Source: Armatimonadota bacterium (GTDB lineage Bacteria; Armatimonadota; Hebobacteria; CAIYQO01). From it: 64,000 nt of DNA. This document shows, in pieces, positions 34,401 to 46,834 of the stretch. Numbering within the stretch: position 1 is the stretch's first letter; each line of letters starts with the position of its first letter. The notes under the pieces are model-generated. The model did no database searches. It saw only the letters and a program-made list of their open reading frames with translations, and was not told the DNA's origin. Made by a program: the position numbers and the translations under genes. The stretch covers positions 3,520 to 67,519 of the forward strand of contig JAKPKV010000166.1 in NCBI GenBank assembly GCA_029553475.1, read 5' to 3'.

Positions 34401-36413
34401 TTACCAGCGAGCGGCGTTGATGGCCTCCTGGGCGTCGGGGTATTTCCCGGCGGTGGTGAAGGAGCGGTAATATTCGTAGGCGGCGCCGGTCCAGCGGTAG
34501 AAGCGGAACTGGTAACGGGCGTCAGGGTCGGCGGGGGTGGCGTCGCCAGCGCGGCCGGCGGTGATGATCTCCAGGCCGGGGGCGGCGCGGTCGGCGTCGT
34601 CGAAGAGCCAGGCGCCTTTCGCCGCGTGGGCGAAGGGCAGGCGGCTGATGAGGCGCAGTTGCGCGGTGCCCGGCCAGGCAAAGAGGAACAGCGCTTCCTC
34701 GCCGGTGCGGGCGGCGAGCACGACGTAGAGCTCCAGCACGCCGTCGCCGTTCACGTCGCGGATGCCGAAACTGCCCAGCGGCGCGGGGATGTCCGGCGTG
34801 GCGCCGGCCAGCCCGGTCCAGCGGAAGGCGGTCTCGTTGGGGACGCGCTCGTCAAAGGTGAGGGTATCGAGCAGCTCGGCGGGGATGACGCCGTGCTCAT
34901 CCGGCGCGGGGAAGATGCGCAGCATCGGCGGCAGGTCGGTGCCGCCGTCCGCGACGGCCACCGCCACCGTTTCCGCCGTCCCGTCGCCGTTCAGGTCGGC
35001 CGTCCACGCGCCGACGCACTGATAGCCCTTCGAGAAGAGGCGGGGAAATCTCGTCTCCGGGCGGGCGATCATCTCCATGGGCACCGCCGGGCGCGGGGTG
35101 TCCGTCGCCGCCCCGACCGGGATGACCACGCGGAAACCGACGTTGGCATACATCTCGCCGGGCCGCATGGTATCCAGCCGGTAGGCGCAGCGGAACTTGT
35201 AGCCGTGCGTATCCATCGGGTCGAAGCAGGAGTTGCCGCGCACGGCGTACTCCTTCAGCGCCGCCGGCCCGCGCGGGTTGGCCCAGCGGCTGCTGCCGGG
35301 ATCATCGGGGACCAGCCAGTCGGCGCAGAGCTCCGCCATGTTGCCGGCCATGTCCAGTAGGCCGTACGGGCTGGCGCCCCCCGGAAAACTCCCCACCGGC
35401 TTGCGGGCATCAATGCCCGGCTTGCCCATGAAGGGCGCGTAGCGCGTCTCGTCGCGGCGATTGCCCCACGGATACTCGCGCCCGTCCGTGCCGCGCGCCG
35501 CTTTCTCCCATTCCGCCTCGGTGGGCAGGCGCCCGCCCGCCCAGGCGGCGAAGGCGGCGGCTTCTTCCGGCGTCATGCCGCTGACCGGGTAGTCGTCCTT
35601 CCAGCCCTCCACGATTTTGCCGTCGTCGCGCAGCACCTGCGGGGGCACCGGCATCGGCGTTTTCGTCGCCGCGCAGAACTTTGTATACTGCCCGGCGGTC
35701 ACCTCGTACTTTGAAATCCAGTAGCCGTCCAGGTGCACCATGCGCGCGTGATGCTCCAGCGGGTTGCCCGTCTCCTCGATCTGGAAGGCGGTGCTCTGCA
35801 GCGTCACCGCTTTATCCGCGCCGTCGCCGGTGGGGGTGAGCACCGTCGTCTCCAGCGGCACGGGGCGGGCGCGTTTCAGGCCGCTGCTGCCCATCTGGAA
35901 CGCGCCGGCGGGCACGAAGACCATGAGGCCGCCGTCGGGGCTGTTCAGGCGCAGCGTGGGCAGCGCGAAATCCGGTTTCGGCGGCCCGGCGCGGAGGAGG
36001 GTGCGCATGGTGGCGGCGTCGCGGCTGAGCTGCACGTTGAGCAGCCCGGCCAGCCCGCGCGCGATCACGTAGCCGACGGCGTCATATTTCAGCATCGGCT
36101 TGCCCAGGTCCACCGTCTTGATCACCGGCGCACTCTTCGGGCCGCTGCCGTCCGCCGTCGGCTGCCAGGCCGGATCGAGGATCTCCGCTTTCGCGCCCAT
36201 CATGGTGAAGCGGATCACCGTGCGCGGCACGGCGGGGAGGGTGAGGGTGAGGGTATTCGTCGGCGGGTCGAAGACCAGCTCGCCCCCCGCCCACTCCGCG
36301 GCGGCGCGCAACGGCACGTAGGTGGTATCTCCCACCAGCAGCGCGAAGGGCTCGTCGGCGAGGAGGGCGGCGGCGCAGGCCAGCGCGCAGACCAACATGG
36401 CGCGGCGAAACAT
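34401..36413 (-). CDS. exported multidomain FGE-sulfatase (SUMF1-like) domain protein
   Basis: ATG at 36411-36413 preceded by GGAAAGGA; signal peptide MFRRAMLVCALACAAALLA; central FGE domain ...GYWISKYEVTAGQYTKF...WEKAARG...RGNSCFD; the 360 codons upstream in the track ORF are not coding. Confidence 0.8.
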   Translation of the reverse strand: MFRRAMLVCALACAAALLADEPFALLVGDTTYVPLRAAAEWAGGELVFDPPTNTLTLTLPAVPRTVIRFTMMGAKAEILDPAWQPTADGSGPKSAPVIKTVDLGKPMLKYDAVGYVIARGLAGLLNVQLSRDAATMRTLLRAGPPKPDFALPTLRLNSPDGGLMVFVPAGAFQMGSSGLKRARPVPLETTVLTPTGDGADKAVTLQSTAFQIEETGNPLEHHARMVHLDGYWISKYEVTAGQYTKFCAATKTPMPVPPQVLRDDGKIVEGWKDDYPVSGMTPEEAAAFAAWAGGRLPTEAEWEKAARGTDGREYPWGNRRDETRYAPFMGKPGIDARKPVGSFPGGASPYGLLDMAGNMAELCADWLVPDDPGSSRWANPRGPAALKEYAVRGNSCFDPMDTHGYKFRCAYRLDTMRPGEMYANVGFRVVIPVGAATDTPRPAVPMEMIARPETRFPRLFSKGYQCVGAWTADLNGDGTAETVAVAVADGGTDLPPMLRIFPAPDEHGVIPAELLDTLTFDERVPNETAFRWTGLAGATPDIPAPLGSFGIRDVNGDGVLELYVVLAARTGEEALFLFAWPGTAQLRLISRLPFAHAAKGAWLFDDADRAAPGLEIITAGRAGDATPADPDARYQFRFYRWTGAAYEYYRSFTTAGKYPDAQEAINAARW

Positions 36414-36842
36414 GGCGGCGATCCTTTCCACGGCGTCCGGGGAGCGGCGTCCACGACAGTACCCGAGTCTGCCTCCATTATATCGGGAAGCCGGGTCTAT
36501 ATCCATAGACACCGGCCGCGGCGGAGAGTTTTGCCGCGGCCCGGCGCGGGCGCCCGGCGAGAATGTCGGCGCATGAGCCCATCCTCGTCCAGCCTCGCTG
36601 GATGGCGCCCGGGAAAATCCGCACATCTTCGCGCCGCTGTCACGCTTTTGCCGCATGGCGCGCCTGCCGGGGAAAAGTGACGGCGAACCGGCACGTCGCG
36701 CGCTCACCCGGTGTGCGAGACTGGGCTGGAACATCGGGCATCCCTCGCGCCCCGTGTCATGTACCCGTACCGCAGCGGTGGCATGGCCAGCGGGTGAGCC
36801 GGTGGATTCGACGATACCCTTGGGGAAAAGGAGGATCTCCCG

Positions 36843-38444
36843 ATGAAAAACGGGTTGATGGGTCTGCTCGTCGGCCTTGCGCTGGTAGTGAGTGCCAGCG
36901 CGATGGCCGCGCCGCAACCCCTCACGAATGCCGCCCTCGACCAGGTGGTCGCGGGGGAGGCGACGGCCAGCGGACCACAGGCCGTCGCCGTGGACGGTGA
37001 TGACAGCGCGAACGTCGCGGCGGGCGCGCTGGCGGCCGGCGCGGCGCAAGCGGTGAACGGCGCCGGCAATATCACGACGCAGAATCCGACGAACAGCGCG
37101 GTGTCGTCCACGGACGGCGTCAGCCTGAACGCGGAGAACGGCGGCATCGCGGCGGCGCTGGCGGCGGATGCGCTGGCGGCGGCGTCCAACAATCCGGACG
37201 AGAGCGCCGTGGCGCTCGGCCATGACAACCTCGCGCGGAATTTCGCGGACAACGACGATGTCGCCAATGCCTCGGGGGCCGCGCTGGCCATCGCGGAAGC
37301 GGATGACGCCGCCAACGCGTTCGGCGCGAACAGCCAGGCGTTCGACGGCAACGATGACCTCGCGGTGGCCGACAACGGCACGGCGATCGGGGCGGCCGGG
37401 GACGCGGCGCTGAATCTCGGCCATGCCAACGTCGCCATCGAGGCGCCGGACAACGCGACGCTGGCGCAGGGCCAGGGCGAAGCGGTGCAAAACACGGGCG
37501 CGCTAGCCTGGGCCGATACCGGCGTGGCGGTGGCCAATCCGTCCGACCTGGCGCTGGCGGCCGGCAGCGGCATCGCCGCCGTCGGCAGCGACTTCGCTCT
37601 CGCGTCGGACGACGCGGCGGCGGCGAACGCCAACGATGACGCCGCGCTGGCGCTGGGCGTCGGCAATATCGCGCTCGATGCGCCGGACGACGTGGCCGTG
37701 AATACCGGCAGCGGCGTGGCCGCCGTGGACAGTGCCCTCGTCCTCGCGGAAGAGGGCGGCATCGCCGCCGCGGATAGCGACGAGGCGGCCAACGCCCTCG
37801 GCCATGGGAACACGGCCATCAATGTCGCCGATAACGCGGATAGCGCCATTGCCGTGTACGGCGGCAACGCGGGCCGCGCCAACGGCAACGGCCAGGCGGC
37901 GGCCGGCGACGGCAACACGCAGCAGTATCAGGACGCCACCAATGCCATCGCGGCGATGGATGACGCGGTGGTCCACGTCACCGCGTCCGCCATTGACGAC
38001 ACCACGGTGGAACGCGGCTCGGCCGCGATCATCGGCGAGAGCAACCAGGTGGCGGCGCTGGCGGGTGAGACGGAGATTGATGTCGAGACCGATGGCGGCG
38101 ACCTGGAGATTGACGGCGTGGTGGCCAAATCCGCGGCAATCGTGTGCGCCTTCAACGAGGACGACCGGACGATCACGGTGGAGGTGGAGATTGGCGACTC
38201 CTTCAACGTCGAGAACAACGTGCTGCGCATCTGCGGGATGGATCAGGCGTCCGGCATCGTGCTGGCGAGCTCGCTGAACGACCAGCAGACCGGGGCGAAC
38301 CTGAACGTGACCAGCGCCACCAGCGTGGTGCCCACGGTGACGGGGACGAGCGTGCCGGCGACGGCGGTGGGCACGGCGACGGCCGACACCGCGCTGAACC
38401 AGTTGGTGAGCAACGGGTCTGCGCTGGTGAATATCCAGTTCTGA
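36843..38444 (+). CDS. secreted Ala/Asp/Asn/Gly-rich low-complexity repeat protein, paralog 1 (candidate fibre/amyloid subunit)
   Basis: AAGGAGGATCTCCCGATG start context; signal peptide ...SASAMA; then APQPLTNAALDQVVAG; degenerate ~20-30 aa repeats (DAALNLGHANVAIEAPDNATLAQ...); C-terminal ...ALVNIQF. Confidence 0.8.
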   Translation: MKNGLMGLLVGLALVVSASAMAAPQPLTNAALDQVVAGEATASGPQAVAVDGDDSANVAAGALAAGAAQAVNGAGNITTQNPTNSAVSSTDGVSLNAENGGIAAALAADALAAASNNPDESAVALGHDNLARNFADNDDVANASGAALAIAEADDAANAFGANSQAFDGNDDLAVADNGTAIGAAGDAALNLGHANVAIEAPDNATLAQGQGEAVQNTGALAWADTGVAVANPSDLALAAGSGIAAVGSDFALASDDAAAANANDDAALALGVGNIALDAPDDVAVNTGSGVAAVDSALVLAEEGGIAAADSDEAANALGHGNTAINVADNADSAIAVYGGNAGRANGNGQAAAGDGNTQQYQDATNAIAAMDDAVVHVTASAIDDTTVERGSAAIIGESNQVAALAGETEIDVETDGGDLEIDGVVAKSAAIVCAFNEDDRTITVEVEIGDSFNVENNVLRICGMDQASGIVLASSLNDQQTGANLNVTSATSVVPTVTGTSVPATAVGTATADTALNQLVSNGSALVNIQF

Positions 38445-38781
38445 CGCCGAATCCCCCCGGCAGGGGAGCTGTGCGCGCGGGCGCTGTCGCTCGCGCGCAC
38501 AACGTTGTCTGGCACGTCGCGCAACCGGCCGTGGGGCAGGCGATGGGCTGAGAAGTCCACAACGGGGCGTGTTTGCACGGATTTACACGCAAGCGGGCAT
38601 GCCGGGCGGGACAGTGGCGGGGAAGGTGCACATGCCCGGCATGCCGGGGGTGCGAGACTATGCATGAACGCCGGGGAGCCGCTCGCCCCTGATGCTGGGG
38701 TATGATACCGCTGCGGCAGCGTGAGGATGGCGCGGGCCTCCCGATGATTCGACCACCAAGGGGAAGAAGGAGGATCTCCCG

Positions 38782-40452
38782 ATGAGACAACGTGTCACAG
38801 TGTTGATGGCGGCCTGTGTACTGGCGATCAGTACGGCCGCCTTTGCCGCGCCGCAGCCGCTGACGCAGGCGGAGCTGGCGCAGGTGTCCGCGGGCGCGGG
38901 CATCCTCGACTGGTTCCTGGGCGCCGGCACGGGCAATCCGGCCAGCGGCTTAGCGAACTCGACCGGCACCGCGATCGCCGATGGTGAGCAGGCGGTGGCG
39001 GTGGATGGCGACGGCAGCGCCAATGCCGCCGCGGGCGCGCTGGCCGACCAGGCCGCACAGGCGGTGAATGGCAACACCAACACCACCGAGCAGAACCCGA
39101 CGGCGAGCGCGGTGTCGTCCACCGGCGGGTTGAGCGCGAATACCCAGGATGACGGCATGGCGCTGGCGGCGGCGGAGAGCTCGCTGGCGGCCTATTCCGA
39201 CAATCCGACTGACAGCGCGGTGGCCGCCGGGGTGGGGAATGACGCGCTGAACTTCGCCGACAACGGCGACGTGGCCAACGCCACCGACAGCGCGCTGGCG
39301 ATCGGCGACGCCACCGGCGCTGCGAATGCCTTCGGCGAGAACAGCCAGGCTTTCGACGGCAACGATGACGTGGCGGTGGCCAGCAACGGCGTGGCGATCG
39401 GGAATGCCGACGGCGCCGCGGCGAACATCGGTGACGGCAACGTCGCCATTGACGACCCGAATAACGTGGTGCTGGCGCAGGACCAGGGGCTGGCCGTGCA
39501 GAACGACGGGGAGCTCGCCTGGACGGCGAGCGGCATCGCGGTGGCGGATCCGGGCGACGTGGCCATCGCGACCGGCAGCGGCATTGCCGCCGAGGACAGC
39601 GCCTTCGCCGTGGCCTCCCAGAACGGCGTCGCCGCCAACGACAATGACGCCTCGGCGGTGGCCGCCGGTCAGGGCAACATCGCCATTGACGACCCGAGCG
39701 ACGCGGTGGTGAACACCGGCAGCGGCATCGCTGCCGGCGATAGCAGCCTGGCTGTCGCCACCGGCAGCGGCATCGCGCTGCAGGACAACGATGACGCCGC
39801 CAACGCGGTGGGCACCGGCAACACCGCCCTCAACGCCAGCGACAACTCGGACAGCACGATCGCGCTCGGCGGCAACGCCGCCACCGCCACCGGCAGCGCC
39901 CAGGCGGCGGCCGGCGACGACAACAAACAGCAGTATCAGGACGCCACCAATGCCATCGCGGCGATGGACAACGCCAGCGTGACAGTGGCGAAGAACGACA
40001 TTCGCGACAGCACCATCGAAGACGGTTCGGCGGCGGTGGTGGGCAACGGCAACCAGGTGAGCACCGTCTACGACGAGACCACCATCGCGCTGGAGACCGA
40101 CGGCGGCGATATCGAGGTGACCGGCGTCATCGCGAAGGAAGCGGTGATCACCGATTCGTTCAACACCAAAGAGGTGGAGATTGACGTCACGGTGACCATC
40201 AGCGACTCCTTCAACGTGACCACCAATGTCCTGGAGATCAGCGGGCAGAACGGCGTGTCCGCCATCGTGCTGGCCAACTCGCTCGGCGAGCAGTATATCG
40301 GCACGAACCTGAACGTGACCAGCGCCGCCAGCACGGTGCCGTCCGTGTCCGCGCCCGGCGTCCCGGCGGCCACCATCGGCACCGCGACGGCCATCACCAC
40401 GCTCAACCAGATCGTCATCAACGGCAGCACAGACATCACGGTTACCTTCTAA
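38782..40452 (+). CDS. secreted Ala/Asp/Asn/Gly-rich low-complexity repeat protein, paralog 2
   Basis: Identical start context AAGGAGGATCTCCCGATG; signal peptide ...STAAFA; then APQPLTQAELAQVSAG; collinear with paralog 1 including the ANAFGENSQAFDGNDD block; C-terminal ...DITVTF. Confidence 0.8.
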   Translation: MRQRVTVLMAACVLAISTAAFAAPQPLTQAELAQVSAGAGILDWFLGAGTGNPASGLANSTGTAIADGEQAVAVDGDGSANAAAGALADQAAQAVNGNTNTTEQNPTASAVSSTGGLSANTQDDGMALAAAESSLAAYSDNPTDSAVAAGVGNDALNFADNGDVANATDSALAIGDATGAANAFGENSQAFDGNDDVAVASNGVAIGNADGAAANIGDGNVAIDDPNNVVLAQDQGLAVQNDGELAWTASGIAVADPGDVAIATGSGIAAEDSAFAVASQNGVAANDNDASAVAAGQGNIAIDDPSDAVVNTGSGIAAGDSSLAVATGSGIALQDNDDAANAVGTGNTALNASDNSDSTIALGGNAATATGSAQAAAGDDNKQQYQDATNAIAAMDNASVTVAKNDIRDSTIEDGSAAVVGNGNQVSTVYDETTIALETDGGDIEVTGVIAKEAVITDSFNTKEVEIDVTVTISDSFNVTTNVLEISGQNGVSAIVLANSLGEQYIGTNLNVTSAASTVPSVSAPGVPAATIGTATAITTLNQIVINGSTDITVTF

Positions 40453-40522
40453 GTCATCTGGTCGGACCATCCGGGGAGCCGGCGGGAGGCCGGCTCCCCA
40501 CCGAGGAAGGAAGGAGGGAACG

Positions 40523-41059
40523 ATGGGCAGGAACGTGAGCCGTATCCTCGGCTGCGCGGGCATCGCGCTGATGATGAGCCTGATGGCGGTGGCCGGCCCT
40601 CGTCCGATGAGCGATGATCAGCTCGACGCGGTCTACGCCGCCGGGTTCGATGTCGAGATCAGGATGGATATGGATCTCGCGGCCAGCAACCCGGACGCGC
40701 TGGTGCTGCAGGGCGGCGACCCGGAGATGCTGGCGCAACTCTTCACCAGCGGCATCCCGCTGCTGCGGAGCGCCGGCACCGGGCGCAATACCGCGCTGAT
40801 AGATCCATCCGGCGCCTATATGCCCAATCTGCAAAATCTGACGGTGAACAACATCAACATCACCGGCGAGGCGCTGAAAGGGGCGACCACCCTGCTGAAC
40901 ATCTTCGCGTTGGATGGCGACGTGGCGGTGGGGCTGAACCTGAACGTGATCGTGAATCCAGTCGGCGGCACCTGGAACATCAATCAGACGAACATGAACT
41001 GGGCGAATCTGCTCGTTTCGGATGCGCTCAAGACACTGGGCGCGGGCGGCGCGTGGTAA
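40523..41059 (+). CDS. small secreted protein sharing the N-terminal leader-like motif of the repeat proteins (candidate nucleator/accessory subunit)
   Basis: Hydrophobic N-terminus ...ALMMSLMAVAG; then PRPMSDDQLDAVYAAG; Asn/Leu/Gly-rich beta-like C-terminal half. Confidence 0.65.
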   Translation: MGRNVSRILGCAGIALMMSLMAVAGPRPMSDDQLDAVYAAGFDVEIRMDMDLAASNPDALVLQGGDPEMLAQLFTSGIPLLRSAGTGRNTALIDPSGAYMPNLQNLTVNNINITGEALKGATTLLNIFALDGDVAVGLNLNVIVNPVGGTWNINQTNMNWANLLVSDALKTLGAGGAW

Positions 41060-41089: not shown

Positions 41090-41809
41090 ATGCGGCTGAC
41101 CGGTACCTGGACGATACTCCTGGGCCTGGCGCTCTGGGCCCTGGCGGGCGCCTCACCCGTGTGCGCGGGTGAGGCGCGCATTCCCGTCGGGCCGGCGGCG
41201 GCGCTGACGCTGTCCGTCGCGGTGGACAGCATCAAAGAGATGCGCGAGGCGGGCATCACCCTGCAGCAGCTCGATTACAGCTGCGGCTCGGCGGCGCTGG
41301 CCACGCTGTTCACCGCGTACCTGGGTCAGCCGTATACCGAGGCCGATATCATCAACTTCATCGTCAAATCCACGGATTTGCAGAAGGTGGCGGCGCGGCG
41401 GGGCTTCTCGCTGCTCGACCTGAAGCGCTTCGCGGAGGCGCACGGGGTGCAGGCGGAGGGGTATCAACTGGATACTCCCGGCCTGCTGGAGCTGAACTGC
41501 CCGGTGCTCGTGCCGCTGTATCGTCCGGACACGAAGATGCGGCACTTCGTCATCTTCCGCGGGGCGCTGGGCGACCGCGTCTTCCTCGCCGACCCGGCGG
41601 TGGGCCGGCAGACGATGTTCCGCGCGGAGTTCGAGCGCCTGTGGAATCCGCGCGTGGGCATGGTCTTCACCCACGCGGGCGCGCCGCCCACGGAGGAGAC
41701 GCTGCTCGGCGTGAAGCCGGGCGACGAGATCTACATCGGCGCGGAGGCGCTGCGCGCGCTGGTGATGCGCACCGCGCTGCAGTTTATCCATCAGGCGCAT
41801 GAATACTGA
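41090..41809 (+). CDS. stand-alone exported peptidase C39-like cysteine protease
   Basis: Signal peptide MRLTGTWTILLGLALWALAGASPVCAG; C39 catalytic motifs QQLDYSCGSAALATL (Cys) and HFVIFRGALGDRVFLADP (His...Asp). Confidence 0.8.
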   Translation: MRLTGTWTILLGLALWALAGASPVCAGEARIPVGPAAALTLSVAVDSIKEMREAGITLQQLDYSCGSAALATLFTAYLGQPYTEADIINFIVKSTDLQKVAARRGFSLLDLKRFAEAHGVQAEGYQLDTPGLLELNCPVLVPLYRPDTKMRHFVIFRGALGDRVFLADPAVGRQTMFRAEFERLWNPRVGMVFTHAGAPPTEETLLGVKPGDEIYIGAEALRALVMRTALQFIHQAHEY

Positions 41810-41945: not shown

Positions 41946-43037
41946 GTGCGAACCCATCTGCTCTACACCATCACCCTCGTGGTGGGACTGATGTGTCTTG
42001 GCATCCTCGCGCGGGCGCAGACGCCCGCGCTGCCGGCGGACATCCCCGCGGCGAGCGGCACGCCGGCCCTGCCGCCGGAGGGCGGCGACGGCGGCGCGAC
42101 GGACGACGGCGCCACCCCGCCGCCGACCGTCACCCCGCAGCTTCCCGCCAGCGCCACCCGCTCGGACCTGCTGGTGCGCCGGGGGGCCAAAGAGGTGGAG
42201 CTCCGGCTGGCCTACTCGCATTTCTCGAAAAACACCCTCTTCATTGACGGCGTGGCGATGCTGCCGGTGCTGGTCATCGGCGAGGTAGCGGTGGAATCGG
42301 TGCGGCGCGACGTGCTCATCGCTTCCGTCGCCGGGCGCTACGGCATCCGCGACAACCTGGAGGTGGAGGTGAAGGTGCCCTTCCGCTACCAGTACGAGAC
42401 GCGCGACGTGCCGCAGGCCGACCCGCCGCAGCAGATGTCGCTCTCCGCGCTCGGCCTCGGCGACATCGAGGGCGCCGCCTACGTGCACCTGGCGTCAAAA
42501 CGGCGGACCGGCGCGCGCTGGATCGCCAACGTCTCGGTGAAGTCCGCCACCGGCAAGGATATCTTCTCCATTGATCCCGATACCGACGTGCCGCTCGGCA
42601 CCGGTTTTTGGAGCACGCGCGTGGGCGTCACCGGCATCAACATCGCCGACCCCGGCGCCGTCTTCTGGAACGTCGGCTACACCTACAACTGGCTGCGCAC
42701 AGATATCCGCGTCGTCACCGAGGACGCACAGACCGGCGACCAGTTCGTCAGCTACGTGGACATCAAGCCCGGCAACACCTTTGACGTGGGCGCCGGCTAC
42801 GCCTACGCCATCAACCCGCGCATGTCGGTGAACACGGGGCTGTCCATCTCCTTCAATGGACCCACCCGCTCCAACGGCCGTGAGCTCGCCAACACCCGCC
42901 TCACCAGCGCCGCCCTGCGCCTGGGCGCCGTCTGGCTCACCGAGCGCAAATTCCCGGTGGACCTCGCCGTCAGCATCGGCCTCACCGACGACTCGCCGGA
43001 TTTCACGGTGGATTGGCGGCATAGCTATAAGTTCTGA
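41946..43037 (+). CDS. outer-membrane beta-barrel protein (candidate export pore of the repeat-protein locus)
   Basis: Signal peptide; Pro-rich linker; alternating amphipathic beta strands; C-terminal aromatic ...WRHSYKF typical of OMP beta-signals. Confidence 0.7.
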   Translation: MRTHLLYTITLVVGLMCLGILARAQTPALPADIPAASGTPALPPEGGDGGATDDGATPPPTVTPQLPASATRSDLLVRRGAKEVELRLAYSHFSKNTLFIDGVAMLPVLVIGEVAVESVRRDVLIASVAGRYGIRDNLEVEVKVPFRYQYETRDVPQADPPQQMSLSALGLGDIEGAAYVHLASKRRTGARWIANVSVKSATGKDIFSIDPDTDVPLGTGFWSTRVGVTGINIADPGAVFWNVGYTYNWLRTDIRVVTEDAQTGDQFVSYVDIKPGNTFDVGAGYAYAINPRMSVNTGLSISFNGPTRSNGRELANTRLTSAALRLGAVWLTERKFPVDLAVSIGLTDDSPDFTVDWRHSYKF

Positions 43038-43273
43038 GCGGGGGCGTGTCTGGCGATAAATCCGGGGAGGGGGGCCGCCGCCGTCCCGCCTGTGCCCTCG
43101 CGGGGTTGGGAACAGCGCCACTCCACTTCGTTGCGTGGCGCACTACCAACGAACGGGTGCAAGATCGGCGCCGTGCTTCCCCGCTGTCGCCGTTTCGCCC
43201 CGCGCCTTGCCAGCAGCGGCCTCTGGCGCGTATACTGGGGGCAACCCCGCGGCCTGCCGCAGTCGGTTCGCCC

Positions 43274-46200
43274 ATGTATCTCAAACGACTCGAACTCGCT
43301 GGCTTCAAGACCTTCGCCGAGCGCACGACGCTGGAATTCGGTCCCGGCATCACCGCCATCGTGGGGCCGAACGGCTCCGGCAAGAGCAACATCAGCGACG
43401 GGCTGCTCTGGGTGCTGGGCGAGCAGGGGCTGAAGGCGCTGCGCAGCGCGAAATCCACCGACATCATCTTCAACGGCTCCGAGGGCCGCAAGGCGCTGGG
43501 GCTGGCCGAAGTGCACCTGACGCTGGACAACGCCACCGGCTTCCTGCCGACCGAGTTCACCGAGGTCACCGTCACCCGCCGCGTCTTTCGCTCCGGCGAG
43601 TCGGAATATCTCATCAACCGCACCCCCGTGCGCCTGCGCGATGTCCAGGAGCTGTTCATGGACACCGGCATCGGCAAGCACTCGTACTCCATCATCAGCC
43701 AGGGCGAGGTGGACGCCGTGCTCTCCTCGCGCTCGGAGGACCGCCGGGCGCTCTTTGAGGAGGCGGCGGGCATCACCAAATACAAGCAGCGCAAGAAAGA
43801 GGCGCTGCGCAAGCTGGAGCAGACGCGCCAGAACCTGCTGCGCGTGAGCGATGTCATCAGCGAGCTGGAGGGGCAGATCGGGCCGCTGGCGGAGCAGGCG
43901 GAGGCGGCGCGCGCCTACCAGGTGCTGCACGCGGAACTGGTGGAACTGCAGCTCGCGCTGCTGGTGGCGCAGTATACCGGCCTGCAGAGCAGCCTGGGGC
44001 GCGCCCGCGAGCGCGAGACGGAGCTGACCACGGAGTTGGAGGGCCTGCGGCACGCGCTGGGGCAGATCGAAATCCGCGAGACGACGCTGCGCGCCGAATT
44101 GGCCGCGCTGGAAGACGAGCTGGAGGAACGGCGGGGGCTGGAGAACCGGCTGGCGAGCGCCGTGCAGGCGGTGGAGAGCCGCATCACCCTGCTGACACAG
44201 CAGGAGGAGCAGGCCCGCCGCGAGCGCGCGCGGCTGCAATCCGAGCGCGAGGGGTGGCTGGGCGAGGCGGAGCTGTTTGACGGCGAGATCGCCGCCGCCG
44301 ACGCGGAGTGCGCGCGGCTGCACGGCGTCATCGCCGGACTGGACGCGGAGCTGGCCGACGCCGACGCCGCGGTGAAGGACGCCGCCGCCGCCGTGGACGC
44401 GCTGGCGGCGGAGATTCAGGCCCGCCGCGGCGTCTATTTCGACGCCCTCGACGCCGCCGCCAGGATGCGCAACGAGCTGGCGCGGGTGGCCTCGCTGCTG
44501 CGCTCAGCCGAAGGGCGCGCGACGCGCATCGCCGACGAGCAGGCGGAGATCGCCCGCAAGCTGGCGGCGGCGGGGGCGGCGCGGGCGGCGGCGGCGGCGC
44601 GCGCCGATGAGCGCCGCGCCGCGCGCGAAAAACTGGTGGCCGCCCGCGCGGCCGCCGGCCGCGCCCGGCAGGGCGCGGCGGAGGCGCAGGCGGGGCGGCG
44701 CACGGAGGAGGCGCGCGCGCGCGAAGAGTTGGCCGGCCTGCGCGCCCGCCAGCAGACCCTGCGCGAGTTGGAAGAATCGCTGGAGGGCTATTTTCCCGGC
44801 GTGCGCGCGGTGGCCGCCGCCGTGCAGGCTGGGCGACTGACGGGCTGGTACGCGCCCGTCGCGGAGCTGCTGGACGTGCCCGCCGAGCTGGAAACCGCCA
44901 TCGAAGTGGCGCTGGGCGCCAACCTGCAGGATATCGTCACCGATACCGAGGAAGCGGCGCGGGCGGCGGTGGCGCTGCTGAAGAGCACGCGGGCGGGGCG
45001 CGCCACCTTCCTGCCGCTTGACCTTATCGCCCCCGCGCCCCGCGCGGACGTGCCCGCCCTGCCCGGCATCCTCGGGCTGGCGATGGATCTGATTCGCTAC
45101 GACGCCGAGTTTGAAAAGATTGCCCGACACCAGTTGGGCCGCGTGGTCATCGCCCGCGATTTGGACGCCGCGCTGGCGCTGGCAAAAGCGGGCACGGCGA
45201 AGGGCTGGAGCCGCATCGTCACGCTGGAGGGCGAGGTGGTGCATCCGTCGCGCGCCATCACCGGCGGCTCGTTGGGGAAATCCGGCGGGCTGTTGACGCG
45301 CAAGCGCGAGCTGCAGGAGCTGACCGACGGCGTGGCGCGGCTGGAGCGCGCGTGCGGCGCATTGCAGCGCAAGGCGCAGGACGCGGCGGCGGAGGTGGCG
45401 CGGCTGGACGCGGAGCTGAGCGCGCTGGCGAAAGCGTCAGAGGAGGCCGCCGCCGGCATGGCGGACGCGGAGCGCGCGCTGGCGACGGTGGGCCGCGACG
45501 TGGCGGCGCTGGACGAGCGGCGCGCGGCGCTGGCCGACGAGGCCGAATGGCTGGCGCGGGAGCGGGCGGAGGCGAAGACGGAAGAGACGCGGTTCCTCGC
45601 CGAGCTCGACGCGCTGGACGTGCGCTGCCGCGAGGCGGAGGCGGCGGTGGATGCGGCGGAGCGCGCGCTGGCCGGCGGCCAGCAGGATCGCGACGCCGTC
45701 ACCGAGCGCTACGCCGCGCTGCGCCTGCGCGTCACCGAGGAGCGCGGCACGCTGCAGGCCCGCCAGTCGGCGAAGCGCCGGGCGGCGGAGATGCGCGACA
45801 GCCTGGCCGAGCGGCTGGCGGCGAATGCGCGGGCGACGGCGGCGCAGGAGGGGGCGCTGGCGGAGCTGGCCGTCCAGCAGCGCGAGGCGTCCGCCGAACT
45901 GCTGCGCGGGCGGCAGGCGTATGCCAGCGGGTCAGCGGAGGTGGAGGCGGCGCGCAACCGCCGGGCGGCGCTGCTGGAGTCCATCGCCGCCAACCTGCAG
46001 GAGCACAAAGACGGCCGCGACGCGATTGAGGAGTGCCAGGGGCGGCTGCATCGCGCCAACCTGCGCACCACGCAGGTGGAGACGGAGCTCGGTTTTTTGC
46101 GTGGGCAGTTCTTCGAGGATTACCGCCTCACCGTAGACCAGGCGCTGGGGAAAGCCGCGCCGGTGGAGAGCCGCGGCGTCGCCGTCGCCCGCCTGCGCGA

Positions 46201-46834
46201 GCTGCAGGCGGCCATCGAGGAGATGGGGCAGGTGAACCTGGGCGCCATCGAGGAATACGCGCGCATCCAGCAGCGCCTCGGCTTCCTCACCGCCCAGCGC
46301 GCCGACCTGGAAGAAGGCCGCGAGCGGCTGGTGACGGTGATCGCCGAGATTGACGCCACCTGCACGGCGAAGTTTCTGGAGGCGTTCGCCGCCATCGCGC
46401 GGGAGTTCCAGGACCTGTTCGTGAAACTCTTCGGCGGCGGCCATACCGAGCTGTCGCTCACCGATCCGTCTGACGTGCTGGAGAGCGGCATCGAAATCCA
46501 CGTCACCATCCCCGGCAAGCGCAATCAGCATCTCCTGCAGCTCTCCGGCGGCGAGCGCGCGCTCACCGCACTGGCGCTGCTGTTCGCCATGCTGCGGGTG
46601 AAGCCCAGCCCCTTCGTGGTGCTCGACGAGATTGACGCCCCGCTGGACGAGGCGAACGTGGGGCGCTATTGCGACGTGCTGCGCGACTTCACCGCCGACA
46701 CCCAGTTCCTCATCATCACCCACAACAAGGGCACCATGGAAGCCGCCGACGTGCTCTACGGCGTCACCATGGAGAAGGCGGGGATTTCAAAAATCGTCAG
46801 CGTGCGGCTGGCGGAGGCGGGGGCGGCGGGGTAG
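43274..46834 (+). CDS. smc: chromosome segregation protein SMC
   Basis: N-terminal Walker A [39 protein letters not shown]; long coiled coils; hinge; C-terminal signature [16 protein letters not shown] and Walker B [12 protein letters not shown]. Confidence 0.95.
   Translation: [1186 protein letters not shown]

Follow-up and report, generated by a model that had tools for sequence, protein, structure and literature searches.

What does a short conserved segment do when it stands directly behind the signal peptides of three neighbouring secreted proteins and is followed by a gene for an exported C39 peptidase? The question is raised by a 64,000-nucleotide stretch of DNA from an Armatimonadota bacterium (contig JAKPKV010000166.1; the whole stretch is referred to here as the window). 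Five genes, which we call A to E, lie co-directionally on its + strand between positions 36843 and 43037, with a divergent gene upstream and a gene for an SMC protein downstream. We propose that they form one operon encoding an outer-membrane secretion system resembling those known as Fap and Fil. A, B and C are the three secreted proteins, D is the peptidase and E is a predicted outer-membrane β-barrel. The best reading of the sequences is that A, B and C would undergo a two-step N-terminal maturation, in which the segment behind the signal peptide, here called the tag, would be a leader removed by D. To this cleaved-leader mechanism we assign a probability of about 0.6.

The tag behind the signal peptides of A, B and C

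Signal-peptidase sites were located with a crude home-made detector of n-, h- and c-regions, not a trained predictor. They fall at AMA↓A in A, AFA↓A in B and AVA↓G in C, the same sites that an earlier interpretation made from the DNA letters (the sequence-only reading) had proposed. Four residues past each site begins a 12-residue motif, [LM]-[ST]-x3-L-x2-V-x-A-[GA], the cores of which are LTNAALDQVVAG in A, LTQAELAQVSAG in B and MSDDQLDAVYAA(G) in C. Three hydrophobic positions, with acidic or polar residues between them, are followed by a pair of small residues. In AlphaFold models of low confidence the motif residues are helical (residues 31-40 of C and 29-36 of B).

The classical double-glycine leader, the type of sequence cut by C39 peptidases, has the consensus L-12 x3 E-8 L-7 x2 [IV]-4 x G-2 [GAS]-1. 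The sequence-only reading had placed all three proteins in this register. For A and B the placement is exact, with L-12, L-7 and V-4, but C falls into register only if Ala-Ala is taken as P2-P1 and the invariant Gly as P1′; counted from the Gly it is off by one. The hydrophobic spacing of the consensus is matched, but position -2 is Ala rather than the near-invariant Gly, and Glu at -8 is present in B only.

Conservation among orthologues, a check that the sequence-only reading had itself named, was found in 17 orthologues of C and in nine homologues of A and B. In C, D31, L34, D35, A39 and G41 are invariant and V37 and A40 are kept in at least 90% of the sequences. The A/B homologues (9/9) all read AxA↓APQPLT[NTS]x[DE]L[ADS][QK]V[VTS]AG, with A22-T28, L32, V35 and A37 invariant at an overall identity of 45-60% (87% for the closest). 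Ten of the sixteen propeptide residues of A and B are invariant or identical across the homologues, the AxA site of A is conserved in all of them, and a syntenic locus with much shorter A/B homologues retains AP[RK]xLSSx[DE]LDxVAAG. Taking the A/B and C families together, the tag is the best-conserved part in all 26 orthologues found. Directly after the motif, A and B have a variable, indel-rich linker.

A and B are paralogues (57% identity), while BLASTP gave no significant similarity between C and B. When the C family was aligned with the A/B family by hhalign, it was mainly the signal peptide and the tag that aligned (columns 2-104 of 202; probability 93.9%), and the tag therefore appears to be a portable module and not part of a shared domain. 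A weak C-terminal similarity (E=0.11), which might have indicated a further domain common to C and A/B, was not confirmed by hhalign and was set aside.

Peptidase, barrel and tagged proteins across related loci

The earlier view that the peptidase is a soluble, exported C39 enzyme holds: D is a stand-alone protein with its own signal peptide and an intact catalytic set. It matches the Pfam family Peptidase_C39 at 3.9e-17, and its nearest solved structure is the double-glycine protease LahT150 (6MPZ). The catalytic residues, in a numbering that begins at the GTG start, are Gln63, Cys69, His156 and Asp172; in an alignment with 59 relatives the first three are invariant and Asp172 is conserved to at least 90%. 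Translation may begin at ATG 41090, with GAGGA 6 nucleotides (nt) upstream, or at GTG 41078, giving proteins of 239 or 243 residues. The gap between C and D is 30 nt for the first start and 18 nt for the second, and not 40 nt as previously given.

The best NCBIfam matches of D are FilB (2e-31) and FapD (1e-26), and those of E are FapF (1.3e-29) and FilC (6.5e-14), all of them under the curated cut-offs. E also matches Phenol_MetA_deg in Pfam, and its residues 80-363 align with the FapF crystal construct (5O65/5O67) over plug and barrel (E=1.6e-19). The arrangement is consequently less unusual than the sequence-only reading, which called a soluble C39 enzyme non-canonical, had supposed: FapD/FapF of Pseudomonas and FilB/FilC of Acinetobacter are precedents, with D and E as their distant homologues. 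FapD has been known from 2013-2017 onward as a periplasmic C39 protease essential to amyloid secretion in Pseudomonas. It is exported by Sec, its catalytic Cys is needed for secretion of the amyloid through FapF (PMC5557850, PMC3684753) and the Cys38Ala mutation abolishes secretion (PMC5557850). Five further phyla are reported to contain paired FapD and FapF genes (PMC6173800). In the Fil pilus system, which is known from Acinetobacter and Pseudomonas, FilA forms real extracellular filaments on Acinetobacter (PMC10980823, PMC11539960).

Stand-alone peptidases of the D type make up a family of 893 clusters at E<1e-10, mostly of 210-280 residues. We collected 82 loci around related peptidases, comprising the window, a locus designated L001 and 80 fetched loci, and called open reading frames (ORFs) and signal peptides in all of them with one script. 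A double-glycine pattern fixed a priori, [LMIV]x4[LMI]x2[IVM]x[GA][GAS], was sought up to 80 residues past the signal-peptide site. It matched 68 of 314 signal-peptide ORFs beside the peptidase and 16 of 609 elsewhere in the same loci (Fisher p=2e-20); shuffled neighbour sequences gave a mean of 6.5 matches and a maximum of 14. The enrichment of the motif beside the peptidase is ten-fold, and the end of the motif peaks 15-19 residues beyond the signal-peptide site. For a count by locus we used a slightly wider pattern and the 71 loci whose upstream sequence extends for 2.5 kb or more; a motif-bearing neighbour with a signal peptide was present in 60 of these, often as two to five genes. Grouped at 50% identity, 17 of 22 peptidase clusters have such a neighbour.

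These results bear on whether the tag is simply what proteins rich in Ala, Leu and Gly, encoded in high-GC DNA, would show by chance. In these genomes the loose pattern does match about 2-5% of signal-peptide ORFs as background. A strict form of the core, [LM][STD]x3[LM]x2[VI]xA[GA], however, matches exactly three times in a six-frame translation of the 64-kb window, and all three matches are tags, those of A, B and C, each standing equally far from its signal-peptide site. With the motif residues invariant in orthologues and the motif enriched beside the peptidase, the conservation and enrichment tests in effect refute a chance resemblance, which we give next to no weight.

A consensus built from 116 ORFs reads L-[DTS]-D-[AS]-[EAQ]-L-[DA]-x-V-[TR]-[GA]-[GQA], and the variant of the motif tracks the clade of the peptidase in the peptidase tree. 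The window's clade, which takes in Armatimonadota, Omnitrophota, Acidobacteriota, Campylobacterales and some Gamma- and Alphaproteobacteria, has xTAG or YAA↓G; the Fil clade, in which the cargo is FilA/DUF6160, has TGQ↓DG[IV]S; and the Fap clade has RG[GKR]↓[FY]. Neighbours that carry the motif come from Armatimonadota, Omnitrophota, Acidobacteriota, Campylobacterota and Alpha-, Beta- and Gammaproteobacteria, and they belong to different Pfam or NCBIfam families or to none (FilA-like proteins fall in DUF6160, others have no match). Adjacent genes for peptidase and barrel, both with signal peptides, are found in the window and, in the same synteny, in L001 and a further locus, L002. The window locus is thus a member of a wider class that combines a Sec-exported stand-alone C39 peptidase, a FapF-like barrel and tagged cargo.

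The same spread is relevant to a different explanation, in which the tag would be a structural element of the mature proteins, an N-terminal helix or strand engaged in subunit contacts, and would occur beside the peptidase merely through inheritance of the gene cluster. Fibre subunits elsewhere polymerise via N-terminal extensions, and the motif is conserved while its removal is a prediction. Against this, the motif is common to cargo families that are otherwise dissimilar, both A/B and C in the window and the neighbours at other loci; it always stands at a fixed short distance from the signal-peptide site; and it matches a protease recognition consensus at four spaced positions. We consider a purely structural role improbable.

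Some of the matches counted as background are evidently further cargo genes. Locus L057 has tagged signal-peptide ORFs about 7.8 kb before the peptidase gene (-7.8 kb, + strand) and about 5.6 kb after it (+5.6 kb, - strand), and L070 has one at about +7 kb on the - strand; the sequences are SDRLSDTQMDQISAG, GQPLSDQQMDGVIAAG and LSPMQDSDLSAVSGQ↓DGVT. It follows that cargo genes need not lie in the operon, and the tag could serve to locate dispersed substrates. In one clade, of Macondimonas-like and Acidiferrales members (L016, L023, L059, L063 and L079), the sequence upstream of the peptidase gave no credible tagged protein, and the single match in L079, VALAVLMPIVAS, looks like a false positive. 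A FilC-like barrel follows the peptidase gene in this clade and the available sequence of L016, L059 and L063 ends close to the peptidase; the cargo may be downstream or elsewhere.

D and E also differ among loci outside their conserved cores. Past the catalytic core D has a C-terminal tail of 40-50 residues (window 41680-41809), as have the peptidases of L001-L006, L013, L020, L031, L045, L065 and L082. The last residues of this tail are, for most members of the window's clade and the Fap clade, an acidic one and then Phe or Tyr (…AHEY, …ADEF, …GPGDF, …SDFF), an ending that could be a docking motif for the barrel protein. At the N-terminus of E (41946-42180) a Pro/Ala/Thr-rich linker of about 55 residues, without heptads, takes the place of the periplasmic coiled coil of FapF; the coiled coil is present in FapF and most homologues of other loci and absent from the Armatimonadota, L001 and L002 versions.

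Cleaved leader or docking signal

Each of the three known systems to which the window can be compared supplies part of the picture. The leaders of peptidase-containing ABC exporters (PCATs; ComA, LahT and PCAT1) share with the tag the spacing -12/-7/-4, an acidic or polar residue at -8, a small pair at -2/-1 and a predicted two-turn helix, and D is of the same protease family with the same catalytic residues. The classical leader, however, forms the extreme N-terminus of a cytoplasmic precursor, while the tag is internal, behind a Sec signal. D is soluble, periplasmic and stand-alone, and the operon holds no ABC transporter. The cargo has 178-556 residues where PCAT substrates are small peptides, it would be exported across the outer membrane via a β-barrel, and it carries Ala at -2 (followed by G, G and A in A, B and C) where the classical leaders carry Gly.

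Fap likewise has a stand-alone C39 peptidase that is exported by Sec and, after it, a homologous outer-membrane protein of the plug-and-barrel type, the trimeric FapF. It also has Sec signals on every component and repeat-rich secreted subunits, one of which, FapE, has the same leader-like motif right after the signal peptide. Yet D reaches only 93.5 bits against the FapD equivalog NF058616 (cut-off 330) and falls in another clade than Pseudomonas FapD, E reaches 103 bits against the FapF equivalog NF058560 (cut-off 700) and is without the periplasmic coiled coil, and A, B and C are without the FapBC repeats (PF27129), a family that Pseudomonas FapB and FapC do match, and show no similarity to FapA, FapB, FapC or FapE. 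The tag is on all three cargo proteins of the window and on FapE alone in Pseudomonas, with the small pair A-G or A-A in the former and G-R in the latter.

Fil supplies the best NCBIfam match of D, FilB, and FilA-like proteins carry [LM]xDxxLxx[VI]TGQ directly after the signal peptide. Here too the scores are low, D giving 109 bits against FilB (cut-off 475) and E 52 bits against FilC (cut-off 630). The Fil cargo FilA is a DUF6160 protein and the cargo of the window is not; the genes for FilD (a FadL-like barrel), FilE and FilF are missing, with SMC following E instead; and the Fil tag ends in G-Q where that of the window ends in A-G. Judged by these sequence comparisons, the window locus is outside PCAT, Fap and Fil proper; it would work as they do and is a member of their wider class, to which it adds new families of cargo.

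The Pseudomonas system allows the idea of a leader to be set against published data. FapE sequences and a complete fap operon were retrieved with the published FapE peptides of Rouse et al. as query. FapE reads AYA↓SSAFKPIEMNDAELAELRGR↓FVMPGR, so that the tag is directly behind the signal peptide, with G-R at -2/-1 (…ELRGR); FapB and FapC, the main secreted subunits, are without it, and in Fap the tag may act through FapE only. Published whole-cell mass spectrometry contains no FapE peptide before residue 72, and SSAFKPIEMNDAELAELR would be one of the N-terminal peptides that are absent, which fits removal of a leader without proving it. Rouse et al. stated that canonical C39 sequences are absent from the Fap proteins, and in reviews up to December 2025 the substrate and recognition sequence of FapD are unknown or merely 'thought to be' FapE (PMC6173800, PMC12822426); the December 2025 review has FapD 'thought to' process FapE and FapF. 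A full-text literature search, which did not extend to subscription journals, turned up no account of a leader motif for peptidases of the FapD or FilB type, and the leader itself, unifying Fap, Fil and unnamed systems, is apparently a new finding.

FapA (L082, 4405-4854) contains a degenerate motif, ELSDMDIRGI, about 50 residues past its signal peptide, which resembles the 'LDDxRGG' of small proteins encoded beside FapD-like genes in Cupriavidus and Ralstonia. An abundant intact peptide from strain UK4 that spans the motif (observed 14 times) rules FapA out as a further substrate of FapD.

The course that we propose runs as follows. Sec is predicted to export A, B and C to the periplasm, where signal peptidase I would cut at AxA and expose a propeptide of 16 residues, its core L-x4-L-x2-V-x-A-G/A forming a short amphipathic helix. 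This helix would dock in a hydrophobic groove of D, much as double-glycine leaders do in the C39 domains of ABC exporters, and D would then cleave behind the small pair, after AG in A and B (AG↓) and between the second Ala and the Gly in C (AA↓G). Recognition and cleavage would give the unfolded cargo licence to pass through E, or direct it there, so that it reaches the cell surface; there the repeat proteins A and B would probably form a fibre or matrix in which C is a minor component. Binding by D, cleavage at this exact bond, its coupling to export and the formation of fibres are steps that we infer. The course is proposed because the tag has the features of the leader bound by LahT150, namely three hydrophobic residues, polar spacers, a small pair and a helical prediction; in LahT150, leader residues -4 to -11 form a two-turn helix and the S1 pocket is narrow.

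In the main rival to this mechanism the tag serves as a signal for docking or targeting and is bound but left uncut, the C39 protein or the barrel holding or delivering unfolded cargo as HlyB-type C39-like domains do. The true target of the peptidase would then be elsewhere, perhaps in the barrel protein's linker. Rouse et al. considered the FapF linker as a possible target of FapD; the P1 residues of the Fil and Fap clades, Gln, Lys or Arg, are unfavourable for a classical C39 S1 pocket; and the C family is highly conserved straight across the putative site (AAGFDV), as would suit a part of the mature protein. D, on the other hand, keeps its full catalytic set and the catalytic Cys of FapD is needed for secretion, what calls for an invariant small residue at -2, and for the small pair in the window's clade, is cleavage rather than helix docking, and the N-terminal peptide of FapE is missing from the mass spectrometry data. 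On balance a signal that is bound but uncut seems unlikely, though less so than a structural role.

Several points nevertheless count against the cleaved-leader mechanism. Cleavage is, for every member, a prediction, and the tags of the window have Ala at -2 where classical leaders have Gly (GG, GA, GS). Gln, Lys or Arg at P1 in Fil and Fap is a misfit for the narrow S1 pocket of LahT150, so that the scissile bond, or cleavage as such, may differ there. Since FapB and FapC go without the tag, it is not a universal export signal for pores of this type, and the intact peptide across the FapA motif implies that this degenerate copy is not cut. The missing FapE peptides are negative evidence from a ragged, low-count dataset, and the signal-peptide sites depend on the crude detector. 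Finally, the Fisher p overstates independence because the loci are phylogenetically related; the spread of the tag across unrelated cargo families and phyla is the stronger argument.

The operon and the meaning of the tag

The coordinates of the five genes and of the N-terminal elements of A, B and C are collected in Table 1.

Table 1. Genes A to E and the N-terminal elements of A, B and C, in window positions. Signal-peptide ends are from the home-made detector; arrows mark predicted cleavage sites.
Feature	Position	Strand	Description
Gene A	36843-38444	+	533 residues, secreted; presumed cargo or fibre subunit
Signal peptide A	36843-36908	+	residues 1-22, ends AMA↓A; MKNGLMGLLVGLALVVSASAMA
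Leader-like propeptide A	36909-36956	+	residues 23-38, APQPLTNAALDQVVAG, then E; L-12, L-7, V-4, A-2, G-1
Gene B	38782-40452	+	556 residues; paralogue of A
Signal peptide B	38782-38847	+	residues 1-22, ends AFA↓A; MRQRVTVLMAACVLAISTAAFA
Leader-like propeptide B	38848-38895	+	residues 23-38, APQPLTQAELAQVSAG, then A; L-12, E-8, L-7, V-4, A-2, G-1
Gene C	40523-41059	+	178 residues, secreted; unrelated to A/B except signal peptide and leader
Signal peptide C	40523-40594	+	residues 1-24, ends AVA↓G; MGRNVSRILGCAGIALMMSLMAVA
Leader-like propeptide C	40595-40645	+	residues 25-40, GPRPMSDDQLDAVYAA, plus invariant Gly41, then F; M-12, L-7, V-4, A-2, A-1, G+1
Gene D	41090-41809	+	stand-alone C39 cysteine peptidase, own signal peptide; alternative GTG start 41078
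Gene E	41946-43037	+	363 residues; FapF-like outer-membrane β-barrel (plug and barrel), signal peptide, Pro-rich linker

A is a very acidic protein in which Ala, Gly, Asp and Asn are abundant; A and B each contain 21-25% Ala and 67-69 acidic as against 7 basic residues, and both have imperfect repeats with periods of 16-17 and 48 residues. Pfam and NCBIfam searches with A, B and C gave no match at E<=1, and the exact sequences of A and C are on record as hypothetical proteins of an Armatimonadota metagenome-assembled genome. AlphaFold models of B (10 sequences, pLDDT 38.5) and C (18 sequences, pLDDT 42.6) were too poor for fold searching, though regular short strands were noted in B. That A, B and C are fibre subunits is something we infer by analogy. 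The last residue is an invariant Phe in A, in B and in each of the nine homologues (…VNIQF, …ITVTF; window 38430-38444 and 40438-40452), which resembles the β-signal of outer-membrane proteins; FapC (…GVRF) and FapE (…LGY) also end in an aromatic residue.

Gene A has a strong ribosome-binding site, AAGGAGGA, 7 nt before its start. The approximately 250 nt upstream of A and B (window 36560-36845 and 38500-38784, + strand) share conserved blocks, AAGTGnnGGnnAA, GTGCGAGACT, CATCGGG and CCGCnGCGG, and an identical start region, AAGGAGGATCTCCCGATG; the blocks are also found in front of the orthologues in L002 (5470-5753 and 7385-7709) and L001 (7465-7654 and 8830-9019). They have no Rfam match and weak RNAalifold covariation (-0.19), and may be a duplicated promoter or 5′ leader. 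An Rfam search together with a scan for promoters and terminators across the operon gave nothing meaningful. Long ORFs on the minus strand opposite A and B (36704-37918 and 38950-40563 among them) were judged to be artefacts of high GC content, because it is the plus-strand products that have conserved homologues and synteny.

The divergent upstream gene (34401-36400, - strand) encodes a secreted protein that, by eye, we take to contain a formylglycine-generating-enzyme/sulfatase-modifying domain; the long ORF call spuriously overshoots the likely start, MFRRAMLVCALA…. The SMC gene (43046-46834, + strand) follows directly after E, and this synteny of E and SMC is kept in L001.

The recognition element of the window operon is unusually clear, with three cargo proteins that each carry the tag behind a signal peptide and end it in a pair of small residues. 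A broader claim, that a leader of the kind 'Sec first, C39 second' defines the substrates of the whole FapD/FilB peptidase family and is cut in the periplasm as a ticket through FapF-like barrels, we put forward tentatively, at somewhat less than even odds. If it is true, these systems would be the outer-membrane counterpart of the peptidase-containing ABC exporters, residues 21-40 of FapE (…ELRGR↓) would be the long-sought FapD site, and this branch of the C39 peptidases would have evolved S1 pockets that accept Gln, Lys or Arg. The question of the FapD substrate becomes testable by simple experiments, and the tag offers a rule, at the level of sequence, by which cargo can be sought in hundreds of secretion loci that are as yet uncharacterised. 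Recognition of double-glycine-type leaders would thereby be extended from the cytoplasm to the periplasm.

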